A stretch of DNA of 64,000 nucleotides. It comes from an uncultured Gammaproteobacteria bacterium. Its GTDB lineage: Bacteria > Patescibacteriota > Patescibacteriia > Patescibacteriales > UBA12465. The DNA is taken from positions 481 through 64,480 of the forward strand of contig CAZDYJ010000002.1 of assembly GCA_964509735.1 (NCBI GenBank). The letters are read 5' to 3'. Positions 6,102 to 37,938 of this stretch are shown here, in pieces. The notes beneath the pieces are model-generated. The model saw nothing but the letters and a program-made list of their open reading frames with translations, ran no database searches and was not told where the DNA came from. The position numbers and the translations under genes are program-made. Numbering within the stretch: position 1 is the first letter of the stretch; the number at the start of each line of letters is the position of its first letter.

Positions 6102-8189
6102 TTAATTATCAAAAGAAACTTCCTCACCTTCAGACAGCTTTTTTTCTCCTGCTCCAGAAGAAGAATTGCTAAACTGATTATTGCTTTGGTTATCTTTAGG
6201 GTTATTAAAAGTTTTTGTATTACTCGGACGCCCCTTAAAATCAACCGGTGATAAATTTTTTAAATCTGACAGAGATATCCAAGGACCTTCATCATTTTTT
6301 TCCAAACTAGCATCATTTCCGCCAAGATATTCTTTTTCTTTAATAATCGTGTTTAATTCCTGTTGTTTCTGAGTTTTTCTTTGCTCTTGTTCTAAACGTT
6401 TTTCCTCTCTTTTTTTACTTAAACAATCTTTGCAGAAAACCGGCCTAATACCATCTGGCACAAAAACAGTTCGCGTTATTTGTCCGCAAGAAGAGCACTG
6501 TGTTTCGTGTCCAGATTTTTCTTCAGAAAAAGATGGGGTTTTTATTTTAGGAGCCGGACTTTCTTGTCTTATCTGACTTTCTTGTCTTACCTGTCTTTTT
6601 TGTCTTAGCGGGTTTTCTTGTCTTACCTGTCTTTCTTGACCTCCTTGACTTTCTTTTTCTGTCCGATTTACTTGGTTTACTTGGCTTCCTTGGCTTATCT
6701 GGTTATCTGCGGAAAAACTATTTACAGGTTTCTGGTTATATTCTTCTTTAGAAAAATTATTAGGCTGCCTTTCTTGATATTCTTCTTTTTTGGTAAAAGA
6801 ATTTACTTTATTATAAGGAGCTGTCGGCCTAAAACCCTCTTGTTTATAATTTTTAGTAGAAACATTATTAGCAATAAAAGTTGTTTCTCTTTGTGTTAGA
6901 ACTTCATCATCGTCTGCATTTTCATGCCATTTCATAATTCTTTCTTCAACTGAATTTTTTTCACTAGCATACTGCTCTCTAGAATAATCAACTACCTGAC
7001 TAACATTATCAGTTTTTTCGTCTTCACGTAAAGGTGCCAAACCTTTAGCGGAAAATGGAGCAGAAGAAATACCGTCAATCATTAACTTTAAATACATTTC
7101 GTACTTAGGTAAATTAACAATATCTTCTTCGGTAAAAGTCGGAGTAAATTCTTTAACTAATTCCTCTGCGTCAGCAGCCCCAACGCGAAACACAACCATA
7201 GTGCCAACGTTACCAAAAACAGCTGGCTTAACTTTTTCGCTAAGCTGCTCTATGTATTGATGAGCTAGAATTAAATTTAATCGGTACTTTCTGGCTTCTG
7301 ATAAAATATTAGCAAAGGAGTCGGTCGAGAAATTTTGAAACTCATCGATATATAAATAAAAATCTTTTCTATCTTTTTCTAAAATATCAACTCGACTCAT
7401 AGCCGCTAACTGAATTTTAGTAATCATCATCGCTCCTAACAATGCCGAATTATCCTCACCAATTCTACCCTTAGAAAGATTCATGATTAAAATTTTACCA
7501 CTATCCATTACTTCGCGAAGGTCAATCGAAGATTTAACTTGACCAATAATATTACGCATTAAGGAACTTGATAAAAATTGTCCTACCTTATTTTGAATCG
7601 GTGAAACAGCCTCAGAAGCAAATTTATCAGCATAACCAGCAAACTCTTTCTCCCAAAAAGCTTTAACAACTGGGTCTTTAATATTAGCTACCACTCTTTT
7701 GCGATAATTTTTATCAGACAACATTCTAACCACGCCTAAAATAGTTGATCCGGGAAAATCAAGAATAGCTAAAATAGCATTACGTAAAATATATTCCAAA
7801 CGAGGCCCCCAAGAATCAGCCCAAAGTTTTTGAAAAACCCCAATTAAACCAGAAGCGACTAAATGTCTTAAATGTGGTTCAACTTGTTCAACAATATTAA
7901 AAGCAATCGGATAGTCCATATCCGAAGGATTAAAATAAATAACATCTTTTATTCTCTCGGTAGGAACGTATTCAATAATTTTCTCAGCTAAGTCGCCATG
8001 AGGGTCAACAACGGCCACGCCATAACCAGCTCTAATATCGTTTACAATCATGTTTTCTAAAACCGTGGACTTACCCATACCGGTTTTTCCAATCAGATAC
8101 ATATGACGACGTCTATCGTCGGTTTTTATGCCGAAACGACGAGCTTCATTACGAAAAGTTGTTTGTGCAAAGACAGCAATCTCTCCCAT
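6102..8189 (-). CDS. P-loop NTPase of the TraD/VirD4/HerA-FtsK (AAA_10-like) superfamily, with a long low-complexity C-terminal tail containing a CxxC...CxxC zinc ribbon
   Basis: Walker A LIGKTGMGKST followed by VVDPHGDL. Walker B-like YLYIDEFQNF. The C-terminal ~260 aa are Q/E/K/S/N-rich with RQVRQE-type repeats. Zinc ribbon CSSCGQITRTVFVPDGIRPVFCKDC. Confidence 0.45.
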   Translation of the reverse strand: MGEIAVFAQTTFRNEARRFGIKTDDRRRHMYLIGKTGMGKSTVLENMIVNDIRAGYGVAVVDPHGDLAEKIIEYVPTERIKDVIYFNPSDMDYPIAFNIVEQVEPHLRHLVASGLIGVFQKLWADSWGPRLEYILRNAILAILDFPGSTILGVVRMLSDKNYRKRVVANIKDPVVKAFWEKEFAGYADKFASEAVSPIQNKVGQFLSSSLMRNIIGQVKSSIDLREVMDSGKILIMNLSKGRIGEDNSALLGAMMITKIQLAAMSRVDILEKDRKDFYLYIDEFQNFSTDSFANILSEARKYRLNLILAHQYIEQLSEKVKPAVFGNVGTMVVFRVGAADAEELVKEFTPTFTEEDIVNLPKYEMYLKLMIDGISSAPFSAKGLAPLREDEKTDNVSQVVDYSREQYASEKNSVEERIMKWHENADDDEVLTQRETTFIANNVSTKNYKQEGFRPTAPYNKVNSFTKKEEYQERQPNNFSKEEYNQKPVNSFSADNQISQGSQVNQVNRTEKESQGGQERQVRQENPLRQKRQVRQESQIRQESPAPKIKTPSFSEEKSGHETQCSSCGQITRTVFVPDGIRPVFCKDCLSKKREEKRLEQEQRKTQKQQELNTIIKEKEYLGGNDASLEKNDEGPWISLSDLKNLSPVDFKGRPSNTKTFNNPKDNQSNNQFSNSSSGAGEKKLSEGEEVSFDN
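6560..6700. repeat. In-frame tandem nucleotide repeats (unit ~ttcttgtcttacctgtct) inside the ATPase tail
   Basis: Repeated cttgtcttatctgactttcttgtcttacctgtcttttttgtcttagc...ttcttgtcttacctgtctttcttgacc, encoding QERQVRQENPLRQKRQVRQESQIRQE. Confidence 0.5.
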
Positions 8190-9358: not shown

Positions 9359-9394
9359 AAATATCTGCCGCTAAACGACCACTATTTCAAACTA

Positions 9395-9532: not shown

Positions 9533-9655
9533 ATATTTTTTGTAAATAAATAGATTTTTAATTGATATAAAAATTATTTTTTAAGTCAAATTAAAGTCTA
9601 TCTAAATTAATTATAAAACAAAATTATTTAAAATACAAACAAGGCAAAAATACCT

Positions 9656-11740: not shown

Positions 11741-11744
11741 AGTT

Positions 11745-17584: not shown

Positions 17585-17596
17585 ATAAACGATTAA

Positions 17597-23613: not shown

Positions 23614-23642
23614 TTTAGTCACAGGACCTCACATAACAAAAA

Positions 23643-23672
23643 AAACATCGCTATTTAAACGATGTTTTTTTA
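23643..23672 (+). terminator. Rho-independent terminator after clpP (palindromic; may also terminate the converging minus-strand surface-protein array)
   Basis: aacatcg-ctatttaaa-cgatgtt hairpin followed by a T7 run. Confidence 0.55.
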
Positions 23673-23688: not shown

Positions 23689-24696
23689 TTATTTTTTAAA
23701 AGTAAAAGAATTTAACATTAAATTGAATATATTTTTATAAGCAAGTCTTTCGGAATTAATTGGTATATAAGATAGAGCATAAATATTTTCCCGACTTTCT
23801 TCTGTAATATAGAAATTTAAACCATCGGCACTTTTTATCGCCTCAAAATCACTTTTTACAATCAAACGATCAAGGCTGACGCTCTCATCTTTAAACATGT
23901 TTTCGTACCAAGAAACGATTCCTGATTTATTGTCATTTTTCATAACCGAAACCTGAAAATAAGATGAATCTGCCGCTTCTAAAACAAAGGTATTATCATT
24001 TAACTGATTAGTTAACCAGGCCACAGGATATAAAAAATTGAAAGAATAGGCCTGATTACGATAAAAAACAAGATTTGAATTGTCTTCTATTCTACCGACT
24101 CCGGCTGGATTATAAGAATTTAAAATTTCCTGCAAATCATTATACCCATCCCCATCGCTATCTTGATTATCTTTGGATGTGCCAAGAATAATCTCCTCTT
24201 CGTCGTATAAACCGTCTCCATCACTATCTAAAAGAGGTGCGTCGTCTACCTCGTCTACCTCGGGCCCACTTACCTCAACTGCTTCAATTAAAACAGTGTC
24301 ATTGTTGTCATTTAAATCAAGAACTGGAGCAGGTTCGGTAGATGAGGCTTGTAATTCCGCTTCCGATTTTTTTATTTCATTTTCAGGTTTTATTTCAATC
24401 TTATTTTTATTGGCTACTGGAGAAATAGTGTATATATAAGCAAAATAAACAATAGCCGCTATAACAATAAAACCAAAGAACATAATTAAAACTCCCACTA
24501 TTTTAAATTTCTTTTTTTCCGCAACATGGCTCTGCAAGCTAACTTTTCCAGCTGCTAAAGGATTAGAAACTGTGCCTAATATTTTTTCTTGATTAGGCAT
24601 ATTATGAACTATCAAATCACGTTCAATTTGATCAGAAATATCTTTCTCATTTATTTTTTCCTCTTTTTCTGTTTTTTTGTTCTTGGAAGAAAACAT
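23689..24696 (-). CDS. Single-pass membrane protein with extracellular thrombospondin-type-3-like Asp-rich calcium-binding repeats
   Basis: TM helix VGVLIMFFGFIVIAAIVYFAYIY. DSDGDGLYDEEEI...DSDGDGYNDLQEI (DxDxDGxxDxxE). Ends with the SYNPAGVGR motif shared with the 251-aa paralog. Confidence 0.5.
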   Translation of the reverse strand: MFSSKNKKTEKEEKINEKDISDQIERDLIVHNMPNQEKILGTVSNPLAAGKVSLQSHVAEKKKFKIVGVLIMFFGFIVIAAIVYFAYIYTISPVANKNKIEIKPENEIKKSEAELQASSTEPAPVLDLNDNNDTVLIEAVEVSGPEVDEVDDAPLLDSDGDGLYDEEEIILGTSKDNQDSDGDGYNDLQEILNSYNPAGVGRIEDNSNLVFYRNQAYSFNFLYPVAWLTNQLNDNTFVLEAADSSYFQVSVMKNDNKSGIVSWYENMFKDESVSLDRLIVKSDFEAIKSADGLNFYITEESRENIYALSYIPINSERLAYKNIFNLMLNSFTFKK

Positions 24697-24705
24697 ATTT
24701 TTACT

Positions 24706-24897
24706 TTAAATAAAAAATAAAACGGCTATAATAATTAAAACAAAAATTAAAAATCCTAAAACCAGCCATTTTTGAAAATGGCCGGTTTCTGTTTTTGGCA
24801 TAGTATGTAAATCTAAAGACAGTTTTGCCGTTTCTTTTTTTTCAAAAAGATTTATACGGTGACGTGAGCTCTCTTTTTGTCCATCCTTTTCAGTCAT
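24706..24897 (-). CDS. Small membrane protein (63 aa), hypothetical
   Basis: C-terminal TM WLVLGFLIFVLIIIAVLFFI; sits between the two TSP3-repeat paralogs in the same orientation. Confidence 0.3.
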   Translation of the reverse strand: MTEKDGQKESSRHRINLFEKKETAKLSLDLHTMPKTETGHFQKWLVLGFLIFVLIIIAVLFFI

Positions 24898-24919
24898 ATT
24901 TTATATTGTCTAAAAAATT

Positions 24920-25675
24920 TTAGATTTCTAAACGACCTTCGCCGACAGGATTATAACCGTTTTTAACTTCCTCCCCGTCACTATATCCATCGCCGTCGGT
25001 ATCAGTAATAAGAGGATCGCTTTTATAAATCATCACTTCTTCATAATCACTTAAGCCGTCTCCATCAGTGTCTACTTTTAAAGGATCGGTTTTATAAGTC
25101 ATTATTTCTTCATAGTCTGTTAAGCCGTCTCCGTCTGAGTCTGAATTATAAGGATCTGTGCCGTATCTATAAATTTCATCATAATCCGATAAACCATCTT
25201 TATCTGAGTCTAATTGACTTAAGTCAACGCTTGGCACCTCCTCTTTTTCTTCTTCCTTTTCCTCTACCGTTGGCGTAACAAAAGAATCATCTTTTTCCTC
25301 AACAACAGGCACGTTTTGATTGTTTTCTGGAATTTGATTAATTATAGGTTCATTATTTTCTGGTTTTGGAGCAAGAAATTTACTATAAGCTAAATAAGCA
25401 CCTAAAATCAAAATAGCACCAACGACAGCAAAAATAGCAATTTTTAACCATTTTCCGCCACCTCTGCCTTCTTCCGGTTCTTCGTAAATAACTTTTTGTC
25501 CTGCTTGCAGAGAATTTGTTTCTAAACTTGAATTAGAAGGGTTAGAAGTTAAGCCAACTCTTCTTGTTTCAATTTGTGAAGATTGTTGTCCTCCAGTCGC
25601 ATTATCAGTGTCGGCAAAAATATCGTCGACTTTAGCGTTTTGAGGATTTTGTGCTCCAGTTAAATCATTAAACAT
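24920..25675 (-). CDS. Single-pass membrane protein with three tandem thrombospondin-type-3-like calcium-binding repeats (paralog of 23689-24696)
   Basis: [21 protein letters not shown]. Three ~22-aa repeats [11 protein letters not shown][IV]M.YK[TS]DPL, encoded by ~66-nt tandem DNA repeats at about 24960-25210. Ends with GYNPVGEGR. Confidence 0.5.
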
Positions 25676-25766
25676 ATTTTTATTTTCTTTTAAACTTAAG
25701 AAAAAATCTCAAGCCTTGTTAACTTATCTATATTATAAATCATTTGAAGTATTTTTCCAAATGTAT

Positions 25767-26057
25767 TTATTTTCTTGCTTCCATTAAATTCTCAGCTACT
25801 GGATCCAAAACTATTTCCGAATCGTTGTTTATTATTTTATAAATCAAATTACCATCTGAATCGCGAAAAGCTTGAGCTTTAATTTCTTGATCTAAACCAA
25901 GCTCATTTTTTTGTTCAGCGCTTAAAAACTCCACCTTAAAATCATTTTTTTCTTGAGTCTCGATGTCTTTATTGCGATTAAAGAATAACAAAAAAACCAA
26001 TAAAGCAATTAATAAAGCGACCAAGCTGCCGAGAATGATTATTTTTTTTCTATCCAT
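25767..26057 (-). CDS. Small N-terminally anchored protein (96 aa), hypothetical
   Basis: TM IIILGSLVALLIALLVFLLFF followed by a short soluble domain; in the same operon-like array. Confidence 0.3.
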   Translation of the reverse strand: MDRKKIIILGSLVALLIALLVFLLFFNRNKDIETQEKNDFKVEFLSAEQKNELGLDQEIKAQAFRDSDGNLIYKIINNDSEIVLDPVAENLMEARK

Positions 26058-26126
26058 ATACTTGTTTTAAATTTATTATCTTTAACAAAAAAATGATAAT
26101 TTTTTATAAATAAATATTTAACAAAA

Positions 26127-29100
26127 TTATTCCAAACGCTGCATAAGATCTTCGCCACCACCACCTCCACTGTTTCCCTCAATCTCTTTAACAACAGAAC
26201 CCCCACCTCCGCCGCCGCCACTACTAGAAGGACTGCTGCTTACAACACACACACCATTATAATTCATTGTTCCGTTTATAACTTTGCTGCCAATAGTTTT
26301 ACAAGAATCTCCAAAATATCTAACTATAAAATCAGTTCCCACACATTCATATCTATAACGATCACACCAATTAGTTGTTAGCCAGTTGTCTGTGCAATTA
26401 CCAGGAATTCTTGATGATCTTAAATCATCTTTGTCTCGACAACTATCCCCTGTGGCCACACCAATTCTTTTTAAATCTTTAAACCCAATTGGGCATTTTA
26501 TTTGATTTGTTTTGTGAGTATTATCACTTGATGTATATTTCGTGTTGTCTACGCAAATAGGATTATCTATTTGAATAAATGTACAGTTAGCTAAAGGGTT
26601 TGTTGGGTTAGAAAAAGAATCTGATAAACATATTTTTTTAGGATAGGTGTTGTTTATTTGACTACTTGTAAACCGATAGCTTTTTGTAGATACACCCTTG
26701 TAATACTCGTATGTTACTCCGGCTAAAGTTGCATCTCCTTCAAGAAATTGTATGTCTTTAACAATTTCCTCAACTACCCAACTTTTCTTTTCACATTTAT
26801 TGCTAGTGCATTTATAACCTAAGTCGCATTGTCCATCGGCTGTGCAATAACTTGGGTCAGCCTTACAGTCTCTGATAGCAAAATCACAAATAAAGCCTAT
26901 ATCACAGTCTCTGTCAGAAAAACAGGCTGTGTCATCTCCTTCGCCAGCATTAATACCACAGTCAACAGGACAAGTAGCTCTTCTTTCTTTAGCTGTCTGA
27001 CAAAAACCATCTCCACAAAAACCGCCACCATCAAGAGGATATTTAAAGACACAATAATTTCCAGAGGATATTTCAAATGGAGTCTTATCCCCTACGTTTG
27101 TATTACAAGCATACTGACGGTTAATAGAGCTGTTGTCTAAAGCATGGGCCGCCACACCATCTAATCCGTCACAATCTTCATAGCCATCATTATATAAACC
27201 CCCGCGTCCTTCAGAGTTAGGCGCCTGCTTAATGCCATCACCACAATAACTATTTATTCTCAAGCTAAATTCTTTCTGTGACTTTGCTCCAAAAGGAGAG
27301 GTAGCTGACACCTTAACATTAAAATATGATCCAGCCTGATTGCCAGGAAAAGATTTTGGATATCCGCTTATATAAAAACTATTTTGAGAAAGTTCAGCAC
27401 TGCCTAAATCTAAGCTAAAATCAGAGCTCGGCAAACCTTCTAAACGATAAGTAGTTTTTTGATCTAAATAAGAATCTGGGCCGACCAAACAATTATAAAA
27501 ATACTTATAACTACCCGACGAATTAATTCTCGCTGATAAAGGACAGGAAAAATTTAAAGGTGGTTTAGGTGATAAAAAATCCACATAAAATACTTTATTA
27601 AACCATTTATTATTTCTGTCTCTAACTCTTATATCAAAGCCAATTCTAACATCGTTAGAGAACTCTCCATTAGGATAATTTGCGGGATTAATAGTTCCGG
27701 TATAACTAACTTTATAGCGATTATTACCGGATGGAACTGGTTTTCCATCCCCTTCTCTTACAAAAAATGATCCAACTTCTGGTCCGGAAATTTTTTGTAC
27801 TACATAGTCGGAAGCACTGGGATTAGGGGATAAATTTTCTCCTGAAAAATAAAAACTATAATAAAAAGGAGTTCCTTCTTTAAGGGTGTGAATAGAATTT
27901 TCTGCTTCAATAAAAACGCCAGGCTCCTCTATTTTAATACTAAATGTTTCTTCAATGGCGCCACCGCGACCATCACTGACAATTAAATTAAAGTTATAGT
28001 TATTATTTGAGGGAGTTATTGGAGTTGAGGCGGCATAAACTTTTTTTTCAAATTTATTACTAGTATCAATTAAAACTGGTGCAGCACTCCAGCCAAGCCA
28101 TTTAGAAGCATCACCAGTTGATATTTCCCATTCTAAAGGATCGTTGTTTTCATCAAAAACCCTAATATAGCCATTTAAAGCTCTCCCAGCTTGAGCACTT
28201 AAATAATAGTCGACTACAATAGGGGAAATATTAGCACCGCTTCCACCTCCGGTTGTAAAATTAGTTAAACAAGCCGAACCACTATAATCACCGGGATTAA
28301 ATTCATATCCAAAATCATAACTTTCTAAAGAGGAGCATAAATTGTAACTCGAACCCTCTGAATTAGAAGCATAAACCATAACATAGCTGTTATCTGGTAA
28401 TGGCAAAGATTGTGGACCTGGATCATTTACAAAGCGTCGACTAATTTCATCCCAGCAAGTAATTTTATCAAAACCTGGGCAATAACCAAGTCTATTTATA
28501 GGATCAACATAATTTGGAGAAACGGCCAATTCACTTAAAAAATTCTGAGACCAACTAGGCCAGACAGACACGCTTTTGTTTGCCAAATAAGTTCCAGCTG
28601 TTAAACGAGGATAGTAACCAGTTTTCTGGCGATAATTAGCTAAAGCTTCTTTCATTTCCTCTAAACGTCCGATTCTTTTAGTATCTCTTATAATCATTGC
28701 TTTATGACTGTCACAAAAAAATCCACTCGGACAATCACTGTCAATTAGACAATTTTTTTTATTTAATAAAACACATGATCCCGTGCTGTTTCCTGAGGTT
28801 GAACAAATTTGATCATTAGAACAATCACTATCGTTTTGACAAGAAAAAGATGACACAGAGCAGGAATAAGAAGCATCCGAAAACTCTCCTTTACTTAAAT
28901 TATCATTAAACTTCCAACGAGAAATTATTTGTCCTAAAATATCAACTGTTTTTTCTGATGGCTCCTGGCTATAAGAAATAACATATATATTTGTAAACAC
29001 ATCTTTGCTGTCACTGACATTAGCAGCATTTACATAAACAGTTCGTCCATCTCTTATCGCTTCATAGCCATCAACCGTTAGAGCTTGTGGTGATCCAGCA

Positions 29101-29300
29101 AAGCCCTGACTTCTGTACCAAGAGGCGATGCTGTAATGATTGGGATTAGGAACAACTCGAACCGCAATAGCATCAGCTGAATCAGAAAAAGGATTTGAGT
29201 TTTCTTGAGCCTCGGCTGGATAAAAAACCAAAGCGGCTAAAAAAACAAAAGCAGATACTAAAATAAAACGACGAATGTTCATATTTTTTTCATTTTTCAT
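26127..29300 (-). CDS. Giant secreted Cys-rich protein (1057 aa) with Ig-like domains and a C-terminal poly-Gly tail
   Basis: Signal peptide MKNEKNMNIRRFILVSAFVFLAALVFYPAEA. Numerous Cys clusters (CSVSSFSCQNDSDCSNDQICS...; CGDGFCQTAKERRATCPVDCG). Cadherin/Ig-like segment LNGYIRVFDENNDPLEWEISTGD. C-terminus SSGGGGGGGSVVKEIEGNSGGGGGEDLMQRLE. Confidence 0.55.
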   Translation of the reverse strand: MKNEKNMNIRRFILVSAFVFLAALVFYPAEAQENSNPFSDSADAIAVRVVPNPNHYSIASWYRSQGFAGSPQALTVDGYEAIRDGRTVYVNAANVSDSKDVFTNIYVISYSQEPSEKTVDILGQIISRWKFNDNLSKGEFSDASYSCSVSSFSCQNDSDCSNDQICSTSGNSTGSCVLLNKKNCLIDSDCPSGFFCDSHKAMIIRDTKRIGRLEEMKEALANYRQKTGYYPRLTAGTYLANKSVSVWPSWSQNFLSELAVSPNYVDPINRLGYCPGFDKITCWDEISRRFVNDPGPQSLPLPDNSYVMVYASNSEGSSYNLCSSLESYDFGYEFNPGDYSGSACLTNFTTGGGSGANISPIVVDYYLSAQAGRALNGYIRVFDENNDPLEWEISTGDASKWLGWSAAPVLIDTSNKFEKKVYAASTPITPSNNNYNFNLIVSDGRGGAIEETFSIKIEEPGVFIEAENSIHTLKEGTPFYYSFYFSGENLSPNPSASDYVVQKISGPEVGSFFVREGDGKPVPSGNNRYKVSYTGTINPANYPNGEFSNDVRIGFDIRVRDRNNKWFNKVFYVDFLSPKPPLNFSCPLSARINSSGSYKYFYNCLVGPDSYLDQKTTYRLEGLPSSDFSLDLGSAELSQNSFYISGYPKSFPGNQAGSYFNVKVSATSPFGAKSQKEFSLRINSYCGDGIKQAPNSEGRGGLYNDGYEDCDGLDGVAAHALDNSSINRQYACNTNVGDKTPFEISSGNYCVFKYPLDGGGFCGDGFCQTAKERRATCPVDCGINAGEGDDTACFSDRDCDIGFICDFAIRDCKADPSYCTADGQCDLGYKCTSNKCEKKSWVVEEIVKDIQFLEGDATLAGVTYEYYKGVSTKSYRFTSSQINNTYPKKICLSDSFSNPTNPLANCTFIQIDNPICVDNTKYTSSDNTHKTNQIKCPIGFKDLKRIGVATGDSCRDKDDLRSSRIPGNCTDNWLTTNWCDRYRYECVGTDFIVRYFGDSCKTIGSKVINGTMNYNGVCVVSSSPSSSGGGGGGGSVVKEIEGNSGGGGGEDLMQRLE

Positions 29301-29328
29301 AAAATCAAAGCTATGGAAAATATATTTT

Positions 29329-32300
29329 TTAATCTCCTAAGGGAATAAAAAGCAATTCTTCTGACTTAGAACTTTCATTACCAGAACCATCAATTGCTGA
29401 TATGGCTATATAATTACCAGAAAAAGAAAACTCAGAAGCAGAAAATACAAGATTATTTAAAGCTTCACCACTTTTTTTAACTGGAGAGTCAAAAGATTTT
29501 CCATAAAGACCCGGTCTTAATCCGATGTAAATTCGGTAAAAAGAAGTGTCGTCATTATTTTCTTGCCAGCTAATACGAACTGAGTTTTCTCCAACAGGAT
29601 TAGCCTCTAAATTTTGTGGAACACTTGGAGCTGTTTTGTCAGTAGGCATGGCTATTTTTTCGTTAGCAGCTGGACTTTCGGCTTTGTTAACTGAAACAAC
29701 GCCAATTCTAAAAGCATAATTAAAGCCATTATCTAAACCAGATACAATAGCCGAACAGCTATAGATATTATTATTTAAACTACATATATCAGTATTGTTG
29801 GCCTTAATTTCTCTAAAAGATATTTCACTTTTGCCCGCACGAATATAATATATTTTGTAAGCATCAACTTGATCAGCATTTGACTCCCAAGAAATTTTCA
29901 CCTGACCACTGGTTTTTAAATCCAAGGCTTCAATTATCCTTCCTGAAGATGGTAATTTTTCTCTAAAGAAATATGATTCTTTTAAAACATTCCAAATACA
30001 TATTCCATCAGGCACACCATCACCATTTCTATCATCTCCACAACGATCATTTACATTATTGCAAGAAGCGGGGCGATCAGAGCTGCAAATCAAGTTATTA
30101 TTCCTACCAATAATCACCGGTTCATTTAAAACAGCTGGTAAATCATCGTATGTTCCGCTGGTTCCAGCATCGCGACAATAATAAAAGCTATAATTAAAAT
30201 TACCGCAATCACTTTCTCCAATTGTACAATTATTTACACTATCGTACCAAGGAGACCATAGGCCATCACGACTAATCGCTGGCCAAGGATTGTTACATAT
30301 AAATACAAAAATGTCAGCGTTTTTATTAAAGTTATTGCCAGCCGAATAGTAATTACAACAATTTTCTTCACAAATATCATTAGAACAAGAACAGGTCGCG
30401 TCGCTATTACAAGTTGACCCTGGAGTGTTAGCGATAAAACGAGACATATCTATAGAAGCGTTTATTTTTGTTTTACCATCAGTTATACCTTTTTGAGCTG
30501 AAACAAAATATTGATTTAAAGGTAAGCCGTTTAATCTTTCTCCTTTGGCGATTGTTTCATCAGCAATAGTAAACTTATAATCCCAAAAATAGCCACCAAC
30601 TGGACGCAAGGATTGTCCGTCACTGCTTAAAGCAAAGGCGCTCCAGACTTTATCCTTATCAGCTTTTGAATCAAAACTACCTGAACCAGGAATATCTTTT
30701 TCTTCAGACTCCAAGGCGTTGTCAGTAGTTTTAAATAAATAGGAAATAGGCTTAACATCGATATTCGAAATAGCACATATGCCAGACATGGCACTTTGAG
30801 AAGAAAGGGTTGAAAATTTAATTATTTCAGAATTTTTAAAACTCTTTTCATTAAATTTAATATTCTCAGCTTCTAAAAATCCGCTTGGGATAGAAGCATC
30901 GGGATAACCACGACCATTAAAACCAACTCCTTTAAGACTTAGTATACCTGTTTGACTATTTAAATTTTCATCACCTAAAACTAATAAATAGTAATTAGTA
31001 GATGGTGATAAAATAGTATTTGATAAAAAATTAACAGTACTGGCTTCGGCCGTATTTTCTAAAAATGCTTTACCAGGAATCATACAATAAAGTTTGTCCT
31101 CACTTGGTTTTTCAGCTAATGCCCTATTACTTAGAGATGGTGAGAATAAAGAGGCAATTTTTCTAACTGAAACTCTAAAGAAATTTTCTATTCTGGCAAA
31201 GAAATTATTATTATAAGCTATAGCGTCTTTTAAAGACTCAGCTGAAGCTACAAAAGAGCCGTTTGGACAAATCCCATCCCCAAAAGATCTTTCCTCAATT
31301 AGAACAATATTATTGTCTAAGGACGATTGATCCATTAACTGATTAAAGCTAAATTTTAAAATAGCATTACGACAAACATTATCTGATAAATGGGCTGGAA
31401 AACTCGAAACGATTGTTGGTCTTGTTTCACAACAAGTATCATTACCACAACCAACTAGTTCTGGTGAGCCACATTGCTCATCGGTTTCACAACCACAACA
31501 TAAACCTCTTTCTGCTCCAGCACAATTTCCGCGATCAGCGATACAAGATAAATTCGGATTAATATTTTGACATGAATCAAAAGCTCCCGGAGTAGTTACC
31601 GGCTGACAACAACAAGTTCCACAATCACCTGAAGTAGCTGAGCCAAGAACCCCTCCCTCTGCCATACAAGAAAATCCTGGAGCACTACACAAAGAAGTGT
31701 CACAAACATAGGGGTCTTTAATGCCAAAATAACCACTTACAGAACAAGATAATCCAACGCCACTTATAGGATTAGCACAGGCTGATTCACATTCCTTAAT
31801 ACCTTTATAGTTTCCTGTTTTTAGTTTAGTTTCAGAAGCACAAAGCTTTTCTTCTTCCTTACAATCATAATAAGCACAGTAACCTTGGTTTTCTGGATTG
31901 CCATCATTTATAACTTCTCCTAAGGTACACTTTGACTCCTTGGCATCAAAGCAGCAACGACCACTGGCTTCAGCTGAACAAGCGTCAAACCCTTCTAAGG
32001 CTGAGCATGGATCACTTAAAGCACATTCGGTTTCACATTTTTCTAAACTTAAATAACTACCTGTTTTAACAGGATAACTAGAAGCACAAACATTTGATTC
32101 AGTAGCGGAACAATTATAATAAGCGCAATAACCAAAGTCCTCACTTAAAGGATTATCGCTTATTAAATTGCCTTTTCCACCTCGACAAATCCCTGAGGCA
32201 GAGTCTAAACAACAAACATTAGCATGTTCAAGACAAGCCTCTGGGCTCAAACTAGCACAATCAGTACAATATCCATTTGGAAAACTAGAATCATTAACTT

Positions 32301-35196
32301 CACAAAATTGACCACTGGTTCCTGAACAATTACAAGCAGCATCTCTTTCAAGGGCAGTATCTCCAGCAGCCGCACAACCACTACAACGACCTAAACCACT
32401 ATCATCGTTTGTAGTATCACTACCACAAGTTCCTCCGCATTGTAATTGAACAACTTCGCCGTCTTTGTTTTGAAAAGAGCAGCAATCCCGAGCACTCTGC
32501 CCAACGGTACAACAACAATCACAGCTAGCGCTTTTTGTGGAAACACAACGGCCTACCGAAGAATCACTCTCAGACTCACAAATGGACCCACTAGGACATA
32601 ATTTATTTGAAATACAGCGACCAAAACCATTTATATTTTCACATTTCAAACCGTAGTCGCAGCTAGAACAAGTTGAAGTTGGATTATAGCATTTATCTCC
32701 CACACCTCTTATAAATCCTTCTGGGCAAGATGATGTTAAATTTATTTCCAAACGTCCATTTTCATTACAATATAATTTAGTAGATAAAGCCTGTCCATTT
32801 AACTCATATTCGAAAGATTGATCTAAATCACAATTTTGCTCTTGTTCGTTTTCTAAGTTTTGTAAACATTTATCAAGGTTTGTGTTATAAGTACAATTAT
32901 TTTCTCCAATTCTACAACCAGCTACACTTGAACAATCATAACTACAATTGACACCAAATATTTTATCTCCACCAGCATAAGGAGAACATATACCAGAAGC
33001 ATTTGGACAGGCACCAACATTACAAAATCCGTAATATTTAGATAATCCGGCACAGCTATCTGCTTCTGTCTCTGGATTAGAAAAAGCGGTACTAAAACTC
33101 CATTCATAAACAGAGCTCGGTACGTCAACATAACATTTATCAAGTGTATTAACACACATTCCTTTTTTAAAAGTGCCAGCCGGACAACAAACCTGAGACC
33201 CACAATCAGAATTAGAAATACAAGCCCCAACTGAGAAATTTAAATCATTACCATAAACACCGTTTTTAAATATTCTAACAGGACCAGTAATTGAATTTTC
33301 CGGCACAGAAGTTTCCACCTTATCAGCCCGACCATCTTTCTTAACTATAGCTGACACATTATCAGAACCATTGAATTTAATTGAGACCTCGCTAGAAGGG
33401 GCACCAAAATATTCACCCCAAATAGCAACCTTAGTTAAGGTTGGTCCGCGAATAGGATCTATTTTACACAAACTTGTTTTTAAATCTATATTTTGATCAA
33501 AAGTAAAGGCTTTGGGATTTAAATTATCAGTGCTAACAGTTTTATCTCCTAATTCAATTTTTATAACATAGTCGGAAGGATTTAAATCTTTAGGAACTTT
33601 AACCATTATCTGATTATCTTTCCAAACAGAATTTAAACAAACTTCTGGAAAATCATAAGAAGCTTCAATGTCTCCAAAAAAAACTTTTCTATTACCCTTT
33701 GCTCCTCCAAAACCAGATCCATAAATAGTTACGTATTGACCAGTGTTTCCAGAGCTTGGAGAAAACGAAGAAATAAAAGCCCCTTCATTAGGTTCTTTTT
33801 CTTTTACAAATGTTAAAAAATTACTTTTCTCCAAACTACCATTTAAGGTTGCCTGGACAAAACTTCCTGACTCACCAGCTCGAATATTTGGAGTAGCTGA
33901 CAAACCTTGTAAGCCTTTGGGGTCACTAAAATCAGAAACAAGGCCTCTAACATTAGTTTGATAATTTCCAAAATAAGCCTCGCCTGAGAAAAGATTAACA
34001 CCGGAATAAGAAACCTCCGAACTTAACTGTCCTCTTATTGGATCAATTTCGCATAAACCAGGACGAACAATACTATTGGAACGAAAATCTGGAATAATTG
34101 GGCCATAGTCATTATTGGTTGTGTCAAAAAGAGAATCGGCGGCAACAACTTTTATAGGACCAGTCGCTGCGCCAGCTGGAATAGCGATAATTATCTGATC
34201 ACTTCTCCAGAAACTAATACAGTCTGGATTTATAATGTTTGGCCTATCAGCTTCTTTTTCAGTGCCACTTCCTAAAAAAATAACCTTACTCTTATCAGCA
34301 TCATAAGATCCAAAATTTCGTCCAGTAATAGTTAGAAAATTTCCCGTCGCTCCATTGGGAGCACTTAAGTTGCAAGTATCACTACAATCTGCGTCCGTTT
34401 TACAACTTTTATTCTGTTCATTCTGACAAAAACCGCCCGCTGGACTAATATCAATTATAACGGGAGACCCTATACAGGTACAAGAATCGGGACTACAAGT
34501 TAAATAGGCGCCACATAAAGCATCATCAGCCTGACAAGTAGAGCCGCTTGAAGATCTATTACAAGAATCACCAGCCTGACCCAAGGGGCGACATAAACAG
34601 CTGTTGTCACAGTAATTTCCCTCGCCACAAATTTGATCAGTAGCTTGGCAACCAGGCAAAGCACTACCATCACAACTAACAGGGCCACAACCAGCTCCAT
34701 AACAACCACTACAATCAGAGCCTATACAAGCGCCAAAAGATCCATTGTTCCAAACCATGTATCCTCCACAACCACAAGCTTGAGTATCTCCGCTATTGTA
34801 TCCCCAATTATCACCGCTTATTACGCCGCTAATTCTATTAATTAAAAAGCTGGCAATTCCCCAAGAGGCTAAAATTATAACTAAGCCAATAACTCCAGCA
34901 ACTAGTATTTTTTTAGCTTCGGAAACTTTTTCTTCATTTCCGCCTGAGGTCATCCATTTAAAACCGCCATAAAGAATTATGCCCACCGCTAATATACCTA
35001 AAAACCCTAAGGCAAAATTTATTATTCTTCCCGCCGTTTCCCTTGGGTCGCTATTTGTTTCGCCAAGTGATCCGTCTAAACCACTGGCCACCTGGTCAAT
35101 CCCGTAGTCTTGAGCAAAGGCTATGCGAAAAAATAAAATACCTCCCAATAAAAGCAGGAAAGAAGTTATCTTAAAAAATTTTTTTCTGTTTATCAT
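29329..35196 (-). CDS. Giant surface protein (1955 aa): TrbC/VirB2-pilin-like N-terminal double-TM module + IPT/TIG-like domains + extensive Cys-rich region + C-terminal fibronectin-III-like domains
   Basis: N-terminal signal (…AFAQD) then two hydrophobic helices separated by KWMTSGGNEEK (IINFALGFLGILAVGIILYGGF / VAGVIGLVIILASWGIASFLINRI). Three IPT/TIG-like segments (LTITGRNFGS; VTIYGSGFGG; VAIWGEYFGA). Over 150 Cys in patterned clusters. C-terminal FN3-like SVPQNLEANPVGENSVRISWQENNDDTSFYRIYIG. Confidence 0.6.
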   Translation of the reverse strand: MINRKKFFKITSFLLLLGGILFFRIAFAQDYGIDQVASGLDGSLGETNSDPRETAGRIINFALGFLGILAVGIILYGGFKWMTSGGNEEKVSEAKKILVAGVIGLVIILASWGIASFLINRISGVISGDNWGYNSGDTQACGCGGYMVWNNGSFGACIGSDCSGCYGAGCGPVSCDGSALPGCQATDQICGEGNYCDNSCLCRPLGQAGDSCNRSSSGSTCQADDALCGAYLTCSPDSCTCIGSPVIIDISPAGGFCQNEQNKSCKTDADCSDTCNLSAPNGATGNFLTITGRNFGSYDADKSKVIFLGSGTEKEADRPNIINPDCISFWRSDQIIIAIPAGAATGPIKVVAADSLFDTTNNDYGPIIPDFRSNSIVRPGLCEIDPIRGQLSSEVSYSGVNLFSGEAYFGNYQTNVRGLVSDFSDPKGLQGLSATPNIRAGESGSFVQATLNGSLEKSNFLTFVKEKEPNEGAFISSFSPSSGNTGQYVTIYGSGFGGAKGNRKVFFGDIEASYDFPEVCLNSVWKDNQIMVKVPKDLNPSDYVIKIELGDKTVSTDNLNPKAFTFDQNIDLKTSLCKIDPIRGPTLTKVAIWGEYFGAPSSEVSIKFNGSDNVSAIVKKDGRADKVETSVPENSITGPVRIFKNGVYGNDLNFSVGACISNSDCGSQVCCPAGTFKKGMCVNTLDKCYVDVPSSVYEWSFSTAFSNPETEADSCAGLSKYYGFCNVGACPNASGICSPYAGGDKIFGVNCSYDCSSVAGCRIGENNCTYNTNLDKCLQNLENEQEQNCDLDQSFEYELNGQALSTKLYCNENGRLEINLTSSCPEGFIRGVGDKCYNPTSTCSSCDYGLKCENINGFGRCISNKLCPSGSICESESDSSVGRCVSTKSASCDCCCTVGQSARDCCSFQNKDGEVVQLQCGGTCGSDTTNDDSGLGRCSGCAAAGDTALERDAACNCSGTSGQFCEVNDSSFPNGYCTDCASLSPEACLEHANVCCLDSASGICRGGKGNLISDNPLSEDFGYCAYYNCSATESNVCASSYPVKTGSYLSLEKCETECALSDPCSALEGFDACSAEASGRCCFDAKESKCTLGEVINDGNPENQGYCAYYDCKEEEKLCASETKLKTGNYKGIKECESACANPISGVGLSCSVSGYFGIKDPYVCDTSLCSAPGFSCMAEGGVLGSATSGDCGTCCCQPVTTPGAFDSCQNINPNLSCIADRGNCAGAERGLCCGCETDEQCGSPELVGCGNDTCCETRPTIVSSFPAHLSDNVCRNAILKFSFNQLMDQSSLDNNIVLIEERSFGDGICPNGSFVASAESLKDAIAYNNNFFARIENFFRVSVRKIASLFSPSLSNRALAEKPSEDKLYCMIPGKAFLENTAEASTVNFLSNTILSPSTNYYLLVLGDENLNSQTGILSLKGVGFNGRGYPDASIPSGFLEAENIKFNEKSFKNSEIIKFSTLSSQSAMSGICAISNIDVKPISYLFKTTDNALESEEKDIPGSGSFDSKADKDKVWSAFALSSDGQSLRPVGGYFWDYKFTIADETIAKGERLNGLPLNQYFVSAQKGITDGKTKINASIDMSRFIANTPGSTCNSDATCSCSNDICEENCCNYYSAGNNFNKNADIFVFICNNPWPAISRDGLWSPWYDSVNNCTIGESDCGNFNYSFYYCRDAGTSGTYDDLPAVLNEPVIIGRNNNLICSSDRPASCNNVNDRCGDDRNGDGVPDGICIWNVLKESYFFREKLPSSGRIIEALDLKTSGQVKISWESNADQVDAYKIYYIRAGKSEISFREIKANNTDICSLNNNIYSCSAIVSGLDNGFNYAFRIGVVSVNKAESPAANEKIAMPTDKTAPSVPQNLEANPVGENSVRISWQENNDDTSFYRIYIGLRPGLYGKSFDSPVKKSGEALNNLVFSASEFSFSGNYIAISAIDGSGNESSKSEELLFIPLGD

Positions 35197-35235
35197 TTTT
35201 TTAAACCTATATTTCGGTTTTAATTTTATATAAAA

Positions 35236-37938
35236 TTATAAACGACAATTACCCGATGAGTCTAATTCTGTTGTCGATTCTCCAAAACAACAAGAGCCGT
35301 CAACTTCAGAACAGCCAGGACCGATGCTTGGTTTGAAACAATTTTGATAAATATCTCTAACCCCGGAGCCTACTTGAGCATAAAAAGTCATTGATTCAGG
35401 AAGTGGAGTATGTCCAATAGTTGCAATTGTCATATCTGGTTCTCCGTCAAAAGGTTCAATATCTTTATTTTCGCTATTTATCCAATAACCAAAAGCGGCC
35501 GGAGCAGAACTTCTTAAGTTAATAAATTTATGATTATAAACATTACTACCCGCCCTTATATCGGTACTGCCGCTAATTAATGTGCTGTTTAGCATTAAAG
35601 TATTAAAATAAACATCAATTGGACTAGCTGGCTCTACCTCACTTGAGCCTTGTCCTGGTCCAATGTATGTTATTCTTGGTGGGTCTAAATTTATTTTATC
35701 GCTAACAAAAAATGACCATGAATAATTATCACCGTTTTCTATTGAAGGGTTATTTTCATTATAAAAACTAAGTGGACCTTGGGAACTGGTATTTCTATTT
35801 CCATCAAGAGAATTAGTTGCGGCGTCTATTATACCATCAAGATTAGCTATATTAGCTGACGGATAATTTTTTCCCTCTAAATTTTGACAAACATTATAAC
35901 CTAAAGGTACTGACGAGCATGAATTAAAGGGACTTAAAGCTGCACAGTCATTATTATTTGAGCAAGTTTTTAAATTTGCTGCCTGTAGCTCAACTTTTAA
36001 ATTACTGTTAGCCGGCAAACAATAAATTTTATCCCCACAAGCATTAACTCCACATTCCTCGTTAGATAAAAATTCTACAGTGCGATAACGATTAGAAACC
36101 ATGAAACGACCATTTACATAATCTCCCACGCAAATAGAATTATCACACTTAAAAGATTTACAATCGGAATTAGCGGAACATGATGATCCAGAAGGCAAGG
36201 AATCACTTCTAAAATTAACAACTCTTATAAAATTAGAGACTTCGTCAGCACTACCAGAAACGGTTAAAGGATTAATTGGTTCGTTAAAATTTATTTGAAT
36301 CGCAGAATTTCGAGGACGATCTGGTTTGTCTTTTACTTCACTTAAGTCTATTTTATTAAGCCCACCAGTAAATGGTTTTATGGATAAAGAGCTTGGATTA
36401 CTAGCACTTAAAACAATACTATTACCAGAAATTCCTGCCACTCTTGATTTTAATTTTATTAATGAGCCGTTAGAATTTTCCAATTCAATATCAGGATGAC
36501 CACTTAAAACTGCCTTGATATTAAAAGCTTGGCTTTCTAGGTTTGAAGGAGAAAGAGAATTACAGTTTTCCAAAACAGCAATATTATTATTCCCTGAAAC
36601 AGAAGAAAAAGTATAAACCATTGAGTTAACTCTTAAGGTATCGGCTAAACGCTCTGGTTTAATTTTTATTTCCCAAATATTTCCTGATTCACGAGTTTCA
36701 GTTTTAAATTTTAATTTATAATCGGCAAAGAACACTTCATTATTAGAATTGAAATCAGCAATTCCTAAGAGACTATTATTTAAACCATTAAATAGCTGAG
36801 CCTTGTTGGTATTGTCAGATGGAATAGATATTTTAAAAATGCTTATTTGCCCCGTATAATTATCAAAAGAAACTTCTGGGCCAGAAGGACTAATTGATAA
36901 AACTTCTGCTTTAGAATAAATTTCTGGGCAAGCATTTACTTTTATCTCAGCAATAGCTGAAACGGGAGAAACTGATTCTCCATAAAGATCTTTCTCGTTG
37001 TCCTGTCTAGGAACTATTTTATCTTGCAAAACAATTGGTGGTTCAAGATCTAAAACATTGCTAATTGTAAAAGTTACTTCTAAATAATTACTACTACAAG
37101 AACTAAACATTGAAACGCCGCCAGTTTTTTTTATTCTGTCAGTAAACCGAACGGAATAAGGGGTGTGCCCCGTGCTTGAACCCAAATAACTAAGTGGTGA
37201 TAGTACTAAAGTTTTTTTATCATTAGGAACAGAAACAAGCACATCACTGACATTAGAATTAACTGCTGGGCAAGAGCCGCCAGCACAAGCATCACCTAAA
37301 TCATTTTTAAATATTCTAATATTTTCTGGGTTTAACTTATTACAAGTATTGTTATCACAAGCACATGACAAACCAGCATCACTTATACAAACAGAGCTTA
37401 AATCAATTTCCTCTTTAAAAGTTATCATTATTGAAGTGTTTCGAGGAACGTCTTTTTGTCCGTCTTCAGGATAAATACTTTCAACCGAACAAGCTCCTAA
37501 GGCGCCAATCCCAGGATTATAAAAACCACTTGGAGTACTTTGCCATTGACTTGTTCCACCAGCGCCAGTTAAAGTATCTCTTACTCGATTGATGATAAAA
37601 GTTGTTATCCCCCAAGAAGCTAAAATAATTATTAAACCAATAACAGCATTTTTTAATATTTTCTTAGCTACTGATATTTTTTCTTCATTACCCCCTGAAG
37701 TCATCCATAAAAATCCAGCATAGATAACCAAAAGAACAGCTATAACGCCTAGGAAGCTTAGGGCTAATTGAATAAAGCGTCCAGCTACAACTCTTATGTC
37801 ATCAGTTGCAACTAGCGATCCATCGAGTCCCGACTCAACTTCAGTTAAACCAAAGTCTTGAGCAAAAGCAAAATTAACCAAGAAAAACAAGGTTAAAAAA
37901 CTAAAAGCCAAGACAAAGAATCTTATTTTTTTATTCAT
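35236..37938 (-). CDS. Giant surface protein (900 aa) sharing the same pilin-like N-terminal double-TM module, followed by Ig-like and Cys-rich domains
   Basis: The first ~125 aa are ~65% identical to the 1955-aa protein (MTSGGNEEK loop, two TM helices, AFAQDFGL signal-peptidase site). Bacterial Ig-like segments (SIYPEDGQKDVPRNTSIMITF; ITYIGPGQGSSEVEPASPIDVYF). Cys-rich C-terminal region. Confidence 0.6.
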   Translation of the reverse strand: MNKKIRFFVLAFSFLTLFFLVNFAFAQDFGLTEVESGLDGSLVATDDIRVVAGRFIQLALSFLGVIAVLLVIYAGFLWMTSGGNEEKISVAKKILKNAVIGLIIILASWGITTFIINRVRDTLTGAGGTSQWQSTPSGFYNPGIGALGACSVESIYPEDGQKDVPRNTSIMITFKEEIDLSSVCISDAGLSCACDNNTCNKLNPENIRIFKNDLGDACAGGSCPAVNSNVSDVLVSVPNDKKTLVLSPLSYLGSSTGHTPYSVRFTDRIKKTGGVSMFSSCSSNYLEVTFTISNVLDLEPPIVLQDKIVPRQDNEKDLYGESVSPVSAIAEIKVNACPEIYSKAEVLSISPSGPEVSFDNYTGQISIFKISIPSDNTNKAQLFNGLNNSLLGIADFNSNNEVFFADYKLKFKTETRESGNIWEIKIKPERLADTLRVNSMVYTFSSVSGNNNIAVLENCNSLSPSNLESQAFNIKAVLSGHPDIELENSNGSLIKLKSRVAGISGNSIVLSASNPSSLSIKPFTGGLNKIDLSEVKDKPDRPRNSAIQINFNEPINPLTVSGSADEVSNFIRVVNFRSDSLPSGSSCSANSDCKSFKCDNSICVGDYVNGRFMVSNRYRTVEFLSNEECGVNACGDKIYCLPANSNLKVELQAANLKTCSNNNDCAALSPFNSCSSVPLGYNVCQNLEGKNYPSANIANLDGIIDAATNSLDGNRNTSSQGPLSFYNENNPSIENGDNYSWSFFVSDKINLDPPRITYIGPGQGSSEVEPASPIDVYFNTLMLNSTLISGSTDIRAGSNVYNHKFINLRSSAPAAFGYWINSENKDIEPFDGEPDMTIATIGHTPLPESMTFYAQVGSGVRDIYQNCFKPSIGPGCSEVDGSCCFGESTTELDSSGNCRL

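Follow-up and report, generated by a model that had tools for sequence, protein, structure and literature searches.

A giant cysteine-rich protein with a predicted VirB2-like pilin module is encoded in a conserved operon of Patescibacteria

Arrays of short pilins of the VirB2 type are widespread across Patescibacteria (PMC12102498), and they are essential in Southlakia (PMC10633639). A review suspects that the arrays build a pilus in a monoderm, although none has been seen so far in Patescibacteria (PMC12857230). The known pilins of this kind belong to the Pfam family T4SS_pilin (PF18895; T4SS, type IV secretion system); they are ~70-140 amino acids (aa) long and carry no other domain (PMC12102498, PMC10633639). 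We analyzed a stretch of 64,000 nt from contig CAZDYJ010000002.1, hereafter called the window, to which all coordinates refer. On its minus strand, at 29329..35196, lies a gene that we call gene B. By sequence, aa 1-128 of the encoded protein form a full member of PF18895 with the same helix-loop-helix layout; however, gene B adds a C-terminal ectodomain of 1,830 aa to the pilin. Unlike core-linked T4SS pilins, gene B is not located beside T4SS core genes in the window.

Modular type IV pilins, such as PilB and PilC of Streptococcus sanguinis (PMC8179133, PMC9934059), share with gene B the design of a pilin joined to a bulky adhesive module. The resemblance is an analogy and not a homology, and the two belong to unrelated pilin superfamilies. 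Type IV pilins have a class III signal peptide that is cut by PilD and a single N-terminal helix, whereas gene B has a Sec signal and the two-helix VirB2 fold. The class III signal (G|F/M-T-L-x-E) is absent from gene B, whose N-terminus, MINRKKFFKITSFLLLLGGILFFRIAFA|QDYG, is of Sec type I. By a rough estimate, the module appended in gene B is an order of magnitude larger than those of PilB and PilC.

The giant adhesins with immunoglobulin (Ig)-like repeats (SiiE, LapA, Embp, and Bap-like proteins) resemble gene B in their size, in their strings of TIG, Big_5, and FN3 domains, and in their calcium-binding partners. These adhesins are highly repetitive and are either secreted by type I secretion systems or anchored by sortase. 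In contrast, gene B has few repeats, a putative pilin-hairpin anchor, and half of its mass in non-repetitive modules that are probably disulfide-rich. At its C-terminus (...SKSEELLFIPLGD) we found no LPXTG motif, no hydrophobic tail, and no RTX nonapeptides, and there was no Pfam match to any such element.

Gene B is an unbroken, ATG-started open reading frame (ORF) and has the 1955 aa given in the initial annotation of this DNA. All seven peptides quoted in that annotation are present: the TIG-like LTITGRNFGS, VTIYGSGFGG, and VAIWGEYFGA (aa 288, 489, and 590), the FN3-like SVPQNLEANPVGENSVRISWQ and FYRIYIG (aa 1858 and 1886), and the cysteine-rich CGCGG... and CDCCCTVGQSARDCCSF (aa 141 and 892). 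From the N- to the C-terminus, the protein comprises a signal peptide, a pilin, a cysteine-rich block, four TIG-like units, a second cysteine-rich block, a Big_5/Ig region, a third cysteine-rich block, and a pair of FN3 domains. TIG and FN3 had been named before and were recovered with Pfam; the T4SS_pilin module and the Big_5 domain had been overlooked. With moderate confidence, we read gene B as a modular VirB2-like pilin whose disulfide-stapled surface ectodomain would form part of a conserved apparatus for contact with a partner cell or a surface. A 102-aa, TTG-started ORF in another frame inside gene B (32922-33230, minus strand) has no support and is a by-product of the ORF listing.

The putative Sec signal peptide spans aa 1-28 (35113..35196, minus strand). 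It contains a hydrophobic stretch (aa 7-29), aligns with the signal peptides of free-standing pilins, and would end at AFA|QD, the cleavage site being placed by the A-x-A motif. The predicted pilin module occupies aa 29-128 (34813..35112, minus strand). Hydropathy places its two helices at ~aa 55-80 and 91-123, and these are joined by a short polar loop, FKWMTSGGNEEK. T4SS_pilin matches aa 53-118 with 42.6 bits against a cut-off of 26.6 and covers profile positions 7-71 of 71; the NCBIfam model for the Mbov_0395 pilin-like conjugal transfer protein stays below threshold (32.7 bits vs 40). By its length, gene B falls outside the small single-domain form (~70-140 aa) of the family, the pilin part being 6.5% of the 1955-aa protein.

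Searched alone, aa 1-130 gave hundreds of matches. The top 120 have lengths of 124-137 aa in nearly all cases (six have 143-212 aa); they match PF18895 and essentially no other domain and are 53-71% identical to the query over most of its length. To the pilins of 124-137 aa, which are of the same lineage, these residues are 55-70% identical over ~90% of their length. Several of these stand-alone matches, from Falkowbacteria, are named 'pilin'. The alignment starts at the initiator methionine and covers the signal peptide, the mature N-terminal segment, and both helices with the loop between them; compared column by column, the short pilins terminate exactly at the start of the gene B ectodomain. 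Judged from these alignments, aa 1-128 represent a complete conjugation-type VirB2-like T4SS pilin. The module is also the most conserved region of gene B, with a mean identity of 65% compared to 38-60% elsewhere, which suggests more constraint than a plain anchor needs. That the full pilin sequence is so strictly kept favors a module that interacts in some way with pilins or with the machinery that assembles them.

The same module is found in gene A, which lies next to gene B; its N-terminal 125 aa are 56% identical to those of gene B. In each of two inspected genomes that harbor the giant gene, a tandem array of six short pilin genes is located elsewhere on the chromosome. In one of these (accession # OW818634.1; array at 625-646 kb), the first array pilin shares 61% identity with the B module and 55% with the A module, compared to only 30-43% for the other members. 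The short-pilin arrays in related genomes have a seventh T4SS_pilin gene nearby and are flanked by housekeeping genes and not by VirB4; the module of the giants is a close match to the first array gene only.

The pilin module might do no more than anchor the protein in the membrane; alternatively, it might leave the membrane and join the short pilins in a pilus. In the second case, A and B would be genuine pilus subunits, placed at the tip or scattered along the shaft of a VirB2-type fiber that consists mainly of the short pilin of their subfamily. This fiber would carry the ectodomain off the cell, and A and B would be the equivalent, in a T4SS, of the modular minor pilins known from type IV pili; PilB of S. 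sanguinis provides a design precedent (PMC8179133). We regard this as possible, if rather unlikely. The grouping of the B and A modules with one array pilin speaks for it, as do the high conservation of the module and the retention of the whole pilin, including the mature N-terminal segment and a loop of the lumen type. In conjugative pili, the inter-helix loop points toward the lumen and both termini lie together (PMC11722321); the termini would therefore be expected at the outer surface, and a C-terminal fusion would be compatible with display on a pilus. However, imaging has yet to show a pilus of this type in a Patescibacterium (PMC12857230), and no T4SS core genes lie near gene B in the window. 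In addition, each subunit would carry a 195-kDa appendage, whereas five subunits together account for a rise of only ~12 angstroms (PMC11722321), so that the arrangement fits only at low stoichiometry. Going further, A and B might be the first examples of modular pilins in a filament of the VirB2 (T4SS) type, where they would use an identical polymerization module to mount a 100-200-kDa disulfide-knotted binding device on a pilus of short pilins as the link to a host cell; we consider this speculative and rather unlikely. In the literature that we consulted on T4SS and pilin arrays of Patescibacteria, including a survey based on PF18895, the fusion of a pilin to large domains is not mentioned.

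Of the T4SS machinery, the window encodes only a coupling-protein-like ATPase of the TrwB/TraD type (6102..8189, minus strand), 21 kb from gene B. This ATPase ends in a C-terminal CxxC-x17-CxxC treble-clef zinc finger.

The gene B protein contains 124 cysteines (6.3%), fewer than the more than 150 given initially. All but 10 of them fall into three blocks: aa 139-275 (22 cysteines), aa 657-1256 (78), and aa 1591-1745 (14). The cysteine-rich center thus measures 600 aa and not ~900 aa, and there are two further blocks. The cysteine spacings are widely spread, and CxxC, one of the motifs said to dominate, is rare; counted with overlaps, CxxC, CC, and CxxxxC occur 7, 11, and 13 times, respectively. 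The other 43 ORFs of the window contain 110 cysteines in 15,800 aa (0.70%). At this rate ~14 cysteines are expected in a protein of the size of gene B, and the observed number represents a roughly nine-fold enrichment. The protein has only two histidines. The G+C content over gene B is 35-38% in 2-kb bins, compared to 27-38% over the window.

Gene B has three hydrophobic segments, all of them N-terminal, and none in the ~1,830 aa that follow residue 123. A Sec signal, a two-helix hairpin, and the lack of any later hydrophobic segment together would place the ectodomain outside the cell. The predicted topology is extracellular and not cytoplasmic.

In an alignment of 41 orthologs, 118 of the 124 cysteines are kept in at least 90% of the sequences, and the mean conservation is 0.97 for cysteine compared to 0.46 for all other residues. 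The number of cysteines is even in 111 of 118 full-length homologs (binomial p = 3e-25). The few cysteine columns that vary change two at a time. In 86% of the homologs, cysteine occupies both position 133 and position 149 (Jaccard index 1.0), and the protein studied here has Y133 and W149; the N-terminal block with this swap has a lineage-specific cysteine pair of its own, C165/C170. In the C-terminal block, paired loss is seen for C1602/C1613 (Jaccard 1.0) and C1596/C1614 (0.82). The cysteine counts of the neighboring genes A and C are even as well (26 and 40, respectively). Among the orthologs of gene A, 64 of 68 have an even count; for gene C, 38 counts are even and 19 odd, though the ORFs were taken from stop to stop and may include stray residues.

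Even counts, paired gain and loss, the two histidines, and the extracellular topology favor disulfides over metal sites. The 124 cysteines are best explained as very dense structural disulfides, ~62 in number, in an exported protein. The suggestion of an extreme disulfide density and of an extracellular, very stable structure is supported by the topology and by the conservation, parity, and pairing of the cysteines. If the clusters instead held zinc, iron, or another metal, as in metallothioneins, zinc ribbons, or Fe-S proteins, the very high cysteine density and the presence of some CC, CxC, and CxxC motifs would be accounted for. A probably anaerobic host, in which reduced thiols would persist, also fits metal binding: the window encodes the anaerobic class III ribonucleotide reductase NrdD, its radical-SAM activase, and NrdR (8639-12212, minus strand). 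However, even counts and pairwise changes are what disulfides predict, whereas metal sites use three or four ligands. The AlphaFold2 (AF2) model of the central block shows confident small beta-rich modules without a metal, and no zinc or Fe-S family of Pfam matches. We therefore rejected metal binding, which is very improbable given the even counts, the paired gain and loss, the two histidines, and the location of the protein.

The first cysteine-rich block (aa 139-275, 34372..34782, minus strand) is 16% cysteine. The central block (aa 657-1256, 31429..33228, minus strand; 13% cysteine) was modeled with AF2 from a 41-sequence alignment. The model of aa 650-1262 is a chain of small beta-rich modules with a mean predicted local distance difference test (pLDDT) of 82 and a predicted template modeling score (pTM) of 0.43. 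The third block (aa 1591-1745, 29962..30426, minus strand) has the invariant motifs NPWP, YYCRD, and DDLP in the alignment, and the AF2 confidence is low in part of it. A self-BLAST of the gene B protein revealed no internal repeats at E <= 0.01. Profile-profile comparison, in contrast, revealed a tandem duplication of a ~50-aa unit in the central block, as well as kinships among the TIG and among the FN3 units. The two copies are D1 (aa 1011-1062, GYCAYYNC...C...C...C; 32011..32166, minus strand) and D2 (aa 1094-1144; 31765..31917, minus strand), which hhalign matches with a probability of 99.5% and an E-value of 5e-23.

When nine separate segments of the protein were searched against Pfam, no match with E <= 1 was obtained in aa 121-285, 655-1260, or 1590-1750. 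NCBIfam gave no match in the cysteine-rich regions, nor did PDB sequences searched with the family profile. The best Foldseek E-values for the model of the central block were 0.3 (PDB) and 0.12 (BFVD), with none below 0.1. Among 1.84 billion cluster representatives, exhaustively searched with HMMER for matches to aa 655-1260, there were only 151 relatives; nearly all of these are 1,600-3,800 aa long and carry the module at the same relative position. From these searches and the AF2 models, the cysteine-rich modules appear to be new folds that are private to the gene B family.

Eukaryotic EGF, TNFR, Dickkopf, and keratin-associated repeats share with gene B dense, conserved, and even-numbered cysteines in small extracellular modules; however, no kinship in sequence or fold was detected. 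The comparison to EGF, TNFR, and keratin-associated repeats suggested at the outset found no Pfam match at E <= 1 and no fold match in the cysteine-rich segments, and the only sub-threshold match to Dickkopf_N belongs to gene C. The identification of these segments as EGF, TNFR, Dickkopf, or Myxococcus cysteine-rich repeats was rejected because no profile or fold matched.

Four IPT/TIG-like units lie between the first two cysteine-rich blocks, at ~aa 246-378, 379-470, 471-572, and 573-656 (33229..34371, minus strand). Three had been predicted. Their TIG character holds, as Pfam TIG matches and the three quoted motifs are present, but a fourth unit was found; the second of the four is degenerate, matching only the start of the fourth in hhalign. 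Units 1, 3, and 4 are linked to one another, with hhalign probabilities of 97% for the first and third and 89% for the first and fourth. Pfam TIG (PF01833) matches two stretches, with E-values of 5e-15 for the whole protein and 6e-18 for the segment (55.7-65 bits, cut-off 20.9).

The region from aa 1257 to 1590 (30427..31428, minus strand) contains a Big_5 (SbsA-type) Ig-like domain and a further beta-sandwich. Big_5 (PF13205) starts at aa 1257 and scores 25.1 bits in the whole protein and 30.1 bits (8e-7) in the isolated segment, against a cut-off of 23.6; the match spans only the first half of the profile. In the AF2 model this region is mostly beta, with a pLDDT above 85 except for a helical insert of low confidence.

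Two FN3 domains form the C-terminus (aa 1746-1955, 29332..29961, minus strand), as had been expected. Pfam fn3 (PF00041) matches two stretches, with E-values of 4e-9 for the whole protein and 1e-11 for the segment (37-45 bits, cut-off 25), and the two units are related to each other in profile-profile comparison. The AF2 model of the C-terminal 700 aa (pLDDT 81) consists of Ig-like sandwiches and two FN3 domains. In Foldseek, the model of aa 1255-1955 had its best matches to tandem FN3 structures, with E-values of 1e-9 to 1e-13. PDB sequence searches, whether run with the gene B protein itself or with the profile of its family, produced FN3 and TIG matches only.

The TIG and FN3 domains had been called adhesion modules of a eukaryotic type. 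They are ordinary bacterial beta-sandwich modules that are common in bacteria; among solved structures, the family profile finds its best TIG relatives in cyclodextrin glycosyltransferases of bacteria. It could still be asked whether the TIG, FN3, and cysteine-rich modules were acquired from a eukaryote. The top FN3 matches by E-value are animal receptors, which mainly reflects the content of the PDB. Against this origin, homologs of gene B are restricted to metagenome-assembled genomes (MAGs) of Patescibacteria, apart from a few records whose organism names are apparently wrong, and the 151 clusters with the cysteine-rich module nearly all share the giant architecture. The search found no eukaryotic protein with the cysteine-rich module or the full architecture, and both composition and synteny are native. 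We rejected a eukaryotic origin, which is exceedingly improbable given homologs in Patescibacteria only, the glycosyltransferase matches of TIG, and the native composition and synteny.

The family is large. At least 120 full-length relatives of gene B are present in MAGs; they are 1,800-2,300 aa long and 43-61% identical to gene B at ~100% coverage. A scan of one genome per GTDB species placed gene B at 78 loci. The homologs are labeled Patescibacteria group, Candidatus Falkowbacteria, or Parcubacteria, and the family goes by the database name 'IPT/TIG domain-containing protein'. Judged by these labels and by its gene content, the window stems from a bacterium of the candidate phyla radiation, most likely a Falkowbacterium. 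We found no description of it in the literature on giant, cysteine-rich, or pilin-fusion proteins in Patescibacteria. Dozens of MAG records named 'uncultured Gammaproteobacteria bacterium ... binchicken/SRP...' carry the whole syntenic operon; these names are almost certainly wrong.

Gene B is part of an operon with the order A-B-C-(D)-E-F (37938..23689), which is kept in essentially all of the 80 loci that extend far enough. The gaps between the genes are 9-91 nt. The locus reads signal peptidase, HisRS, RelA (on the opposite strand), A-B-C-D-E-F, ClpP (on the opposite strand), and SecDF; these flanking genes, conserved in 80 related loci, are housekeeping genes. Genes A to F form a conserved, essentially single-copy surface-protein operon and not a variable island.

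Gene A (35236..37938, minus strand) is immediately upstream of gene B in almost every locus that reaches that far. It encodes a paralogous modular pilin of 900 aa with 26 cysteines, in which Pfam recognizes T4SS_pilin and Big_5. Past the pilin module and Big_5, the protein continues with unknown domains. Gene C (26127..29300, minus strand), the conserved downstream neighbor, encodes a predicted secreted, cysteine-rich protein of 1057 aa with 40 cysteines and a poly-Gly C-terminal tail. Its only Pfam matches, to Dickkopf_N and He_PIG, are below threshold, and there is no detectable similarity between the proteins of genes B and C. By eye only, aa ~210-275 of gene C look like GspG or a pseudopilin, without a call by Pfam. 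The number of cysteines varies widely among gene C orthologs, from 23 to 133.

Gene D (25767..26057, minus strand) encodes 96 aa with a single predicted transmembrane segment and was found by tblastn in about one third of the loci. Genes E and F, whose positions are conserved among loci, encode predicted membrane proteins. Gene E (24920..25675, minus strand; 251 aa) contains four bacterial calcium-binding TSP3 repeats (TSP3_bac, 1e-25), and gene F (23689..24696, minus strand; 335 aa) a TSP3 repeat (TSP3_bac, 1e-5) followed by an unknown C-terminal domain. A 63-aa transmembrane peptide encoded between E and F (within 23689-25675, minus strand) is a conserved member of the operon.

A terminator-like hairpin with a 14-bp stem followed by a T run (23639..23671, minus strand) lies 18 nt past gene F and probably marks the end of the operon; it comes from a consensus scan, in which the number of such hairpins in the region was not above the shuffled expectation. 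A promoter scan over the operon found 57 sites, compared to 50.8 +/- 6.8 in shuffled sequence, which is no better than chance.

The conservation of the operon also bears on whether gene B could be an envelope scaffold, either surface layer (S-layer)-like or a cell-wall spacer. The hairpin would then be a mere anchor, and the disulfide-rich rod would provide mechanical stability without binding a partner. Single copy, strict synteny, and 43-61% identity over many species resemble a housekeeping protein rather than a fast-evolving adhesin. The Big_5 domain, which we take to be the Ig-like domain type of the S-layer protein SbsA, the calcium-binding TSP3 repeats of the partners E and F, and the neighboring housekeeping secretion genes for signal peptidase I and SecDF are in line with a scaffold as well. 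However, a 1955-aa subunit with 62 disulfides would be a costly lattice monomer, and the Pfam and NCBIfam scans of gene B found no lattice-forming or SLH-type domain. A scaffold also leaves unexplained why the anchor stays 55-70% identical to a functional pilin. We consider a purely structural role of this kind doubtful.

Under our preferred reading, a modular pilin with a surface ectodomain for contact, gene B would be exported by Sec and its signal peptide cut after AFA by signal peptidase I. The helical hairpin would come to lie in the cytoplasmic membrane with both ends outside and the ectodomain of ~1,830 aa on the cell surface, where the 124 cysteines would be oxidized to ~62 disulfides that staple the family-specific modules. 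Together with A, the secreted C, and the calcium-binding TSP3 membrane proteins E and F, gene B may form a conserved surface apparatus that Ca. Falkowbacteria and their relatives among the Patescibacteria encode in a single copy; its likeliest role would be contact with a partner cell or a surface. The domain anatomy, the identity of the pilin module, conservation, synteny, and the pairwise behavior of the cysteines are direct observations; we infer export, topology, disulfide formation, a complex among the operon products, and the contact function.

Several points weigh against this reading. A host-specific adhesin is not usually so conserved or encoded by a single copy, and both traits would suit a structural role just as well. 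Among the 46 ORFs (at least 90 aa) of the window, none matches the T4SS core proteins VirB4, VirB6, or VirB3 in Pfam. Some VirB2-type pilins lose a C-terminal part during maturation (PMC11722321); as this trimming hints, the ectodomain could be cut off the pilin module. Within the 64-kb window, the search for genes of Dsb, MdbA, or VKOR found none. Patescibacteria lack a respiratory chain (PMC10633639, PMC12102498) and the host of gene B is probably anaerobic; the presence of NrdD, its activase, and NrdR implies an oxygen-poor life that is at odds with a protein needing ~62 disulfides. With NrdD and without a respiratory chain, the oxidant for the 62 disulfides is unaccounted for.

Exported proteins that need oxidative folding are known from other monoderms, namely the MdbA/VKOR substrates of Actinobacteria such as the FimA pilin of Actinomyces oris. 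These substrates carry only a few disulfides, compared to the ~62 that gene B is predicted to have, and the oxidizing enzymes were not located in the window of gene B. The check for disulfide machinery proposed in the initial annotation thus found none nearby; elsewhere, an MdbA-like oxidoreductase, often adjoining VKOR, has been reported as a family enriched in the candidate phyla radiation (bioRxiv 10.1101/335083).

The window is a piece of a bacterial chromosome with ~32% G+C. Of its 46 scanned genes, 43 are on the minus strand, and every 2-kb bin has a negative GC skew; all of the window belongs to a single replichore, and its genes are co-oriented. Its housekeeping genes include those for FtsZ/FtsA, SecDF, GyrA, RuvB, HisRS, ClpP, signal peptidase I, a prepilin peptidase, the anaerobic ribonucleotide reductase, and the T4SS coupling-protein-like ATPase. 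Rfam and tRNA scans of the window detected one tRNA-Thr and nothing else. The prepilin peptidase (A24) is directly beside FtsA/FtsZ and an 821-aa TPR protein with a Wzy_C (O-antigen-ligase-like) domain (16763-20062, minus strand). A second Wzy_C protein is encoded at 53297-54607. Two adjoining secreted proteins without a family match are encoded at 61626-63094 (minus strand), the second with an acidic D/E-F repeat, EFDFEDDFDFEEDFEVDFDLEGDF.

Giant Ig-domain surface proteins, VirB2-like pilins, and modular pilins are each known singly. What is new is their combination, in which a VirB2-type pilin is the base of giant disulfide-knotted proteins with folds private to the family. This carries the idea of the modular pilin from type IV pili over to the unrelated fold of the conjugative pilins. 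Gene B would also be an extreme case of oxidative folding, with ~62 disulfides in one chain and folds without a known relative, in an anaerobic-looking organism from a phylum that lacks a respiratory chain and quinone synthesis. The cysteine-rich modules, modeled with good mean confidence and without a known match, may interest structural biologists as new disulfide-rich folds.

Patescibacteria account for a large part of the diversity of bacteria, and their lifestyle is mostly one of attachment to other cells. In the one species amenable to genetics, the T4SS and the pilin arrays are both essential, yet the products of the pilin genes and their targets are obscure (PMC10633639, PMC12857230). 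The use of a pilin module as the base of two conserved surface proteins of very large size provides concrete candidates for the contact end. If A and B are modular subunits of a T4SS pilus, they would be the physical link to the host through which the essential T4SS of Patescibacteria works, and the design of gene B may show how such ultra-small bacteria contact other cells.

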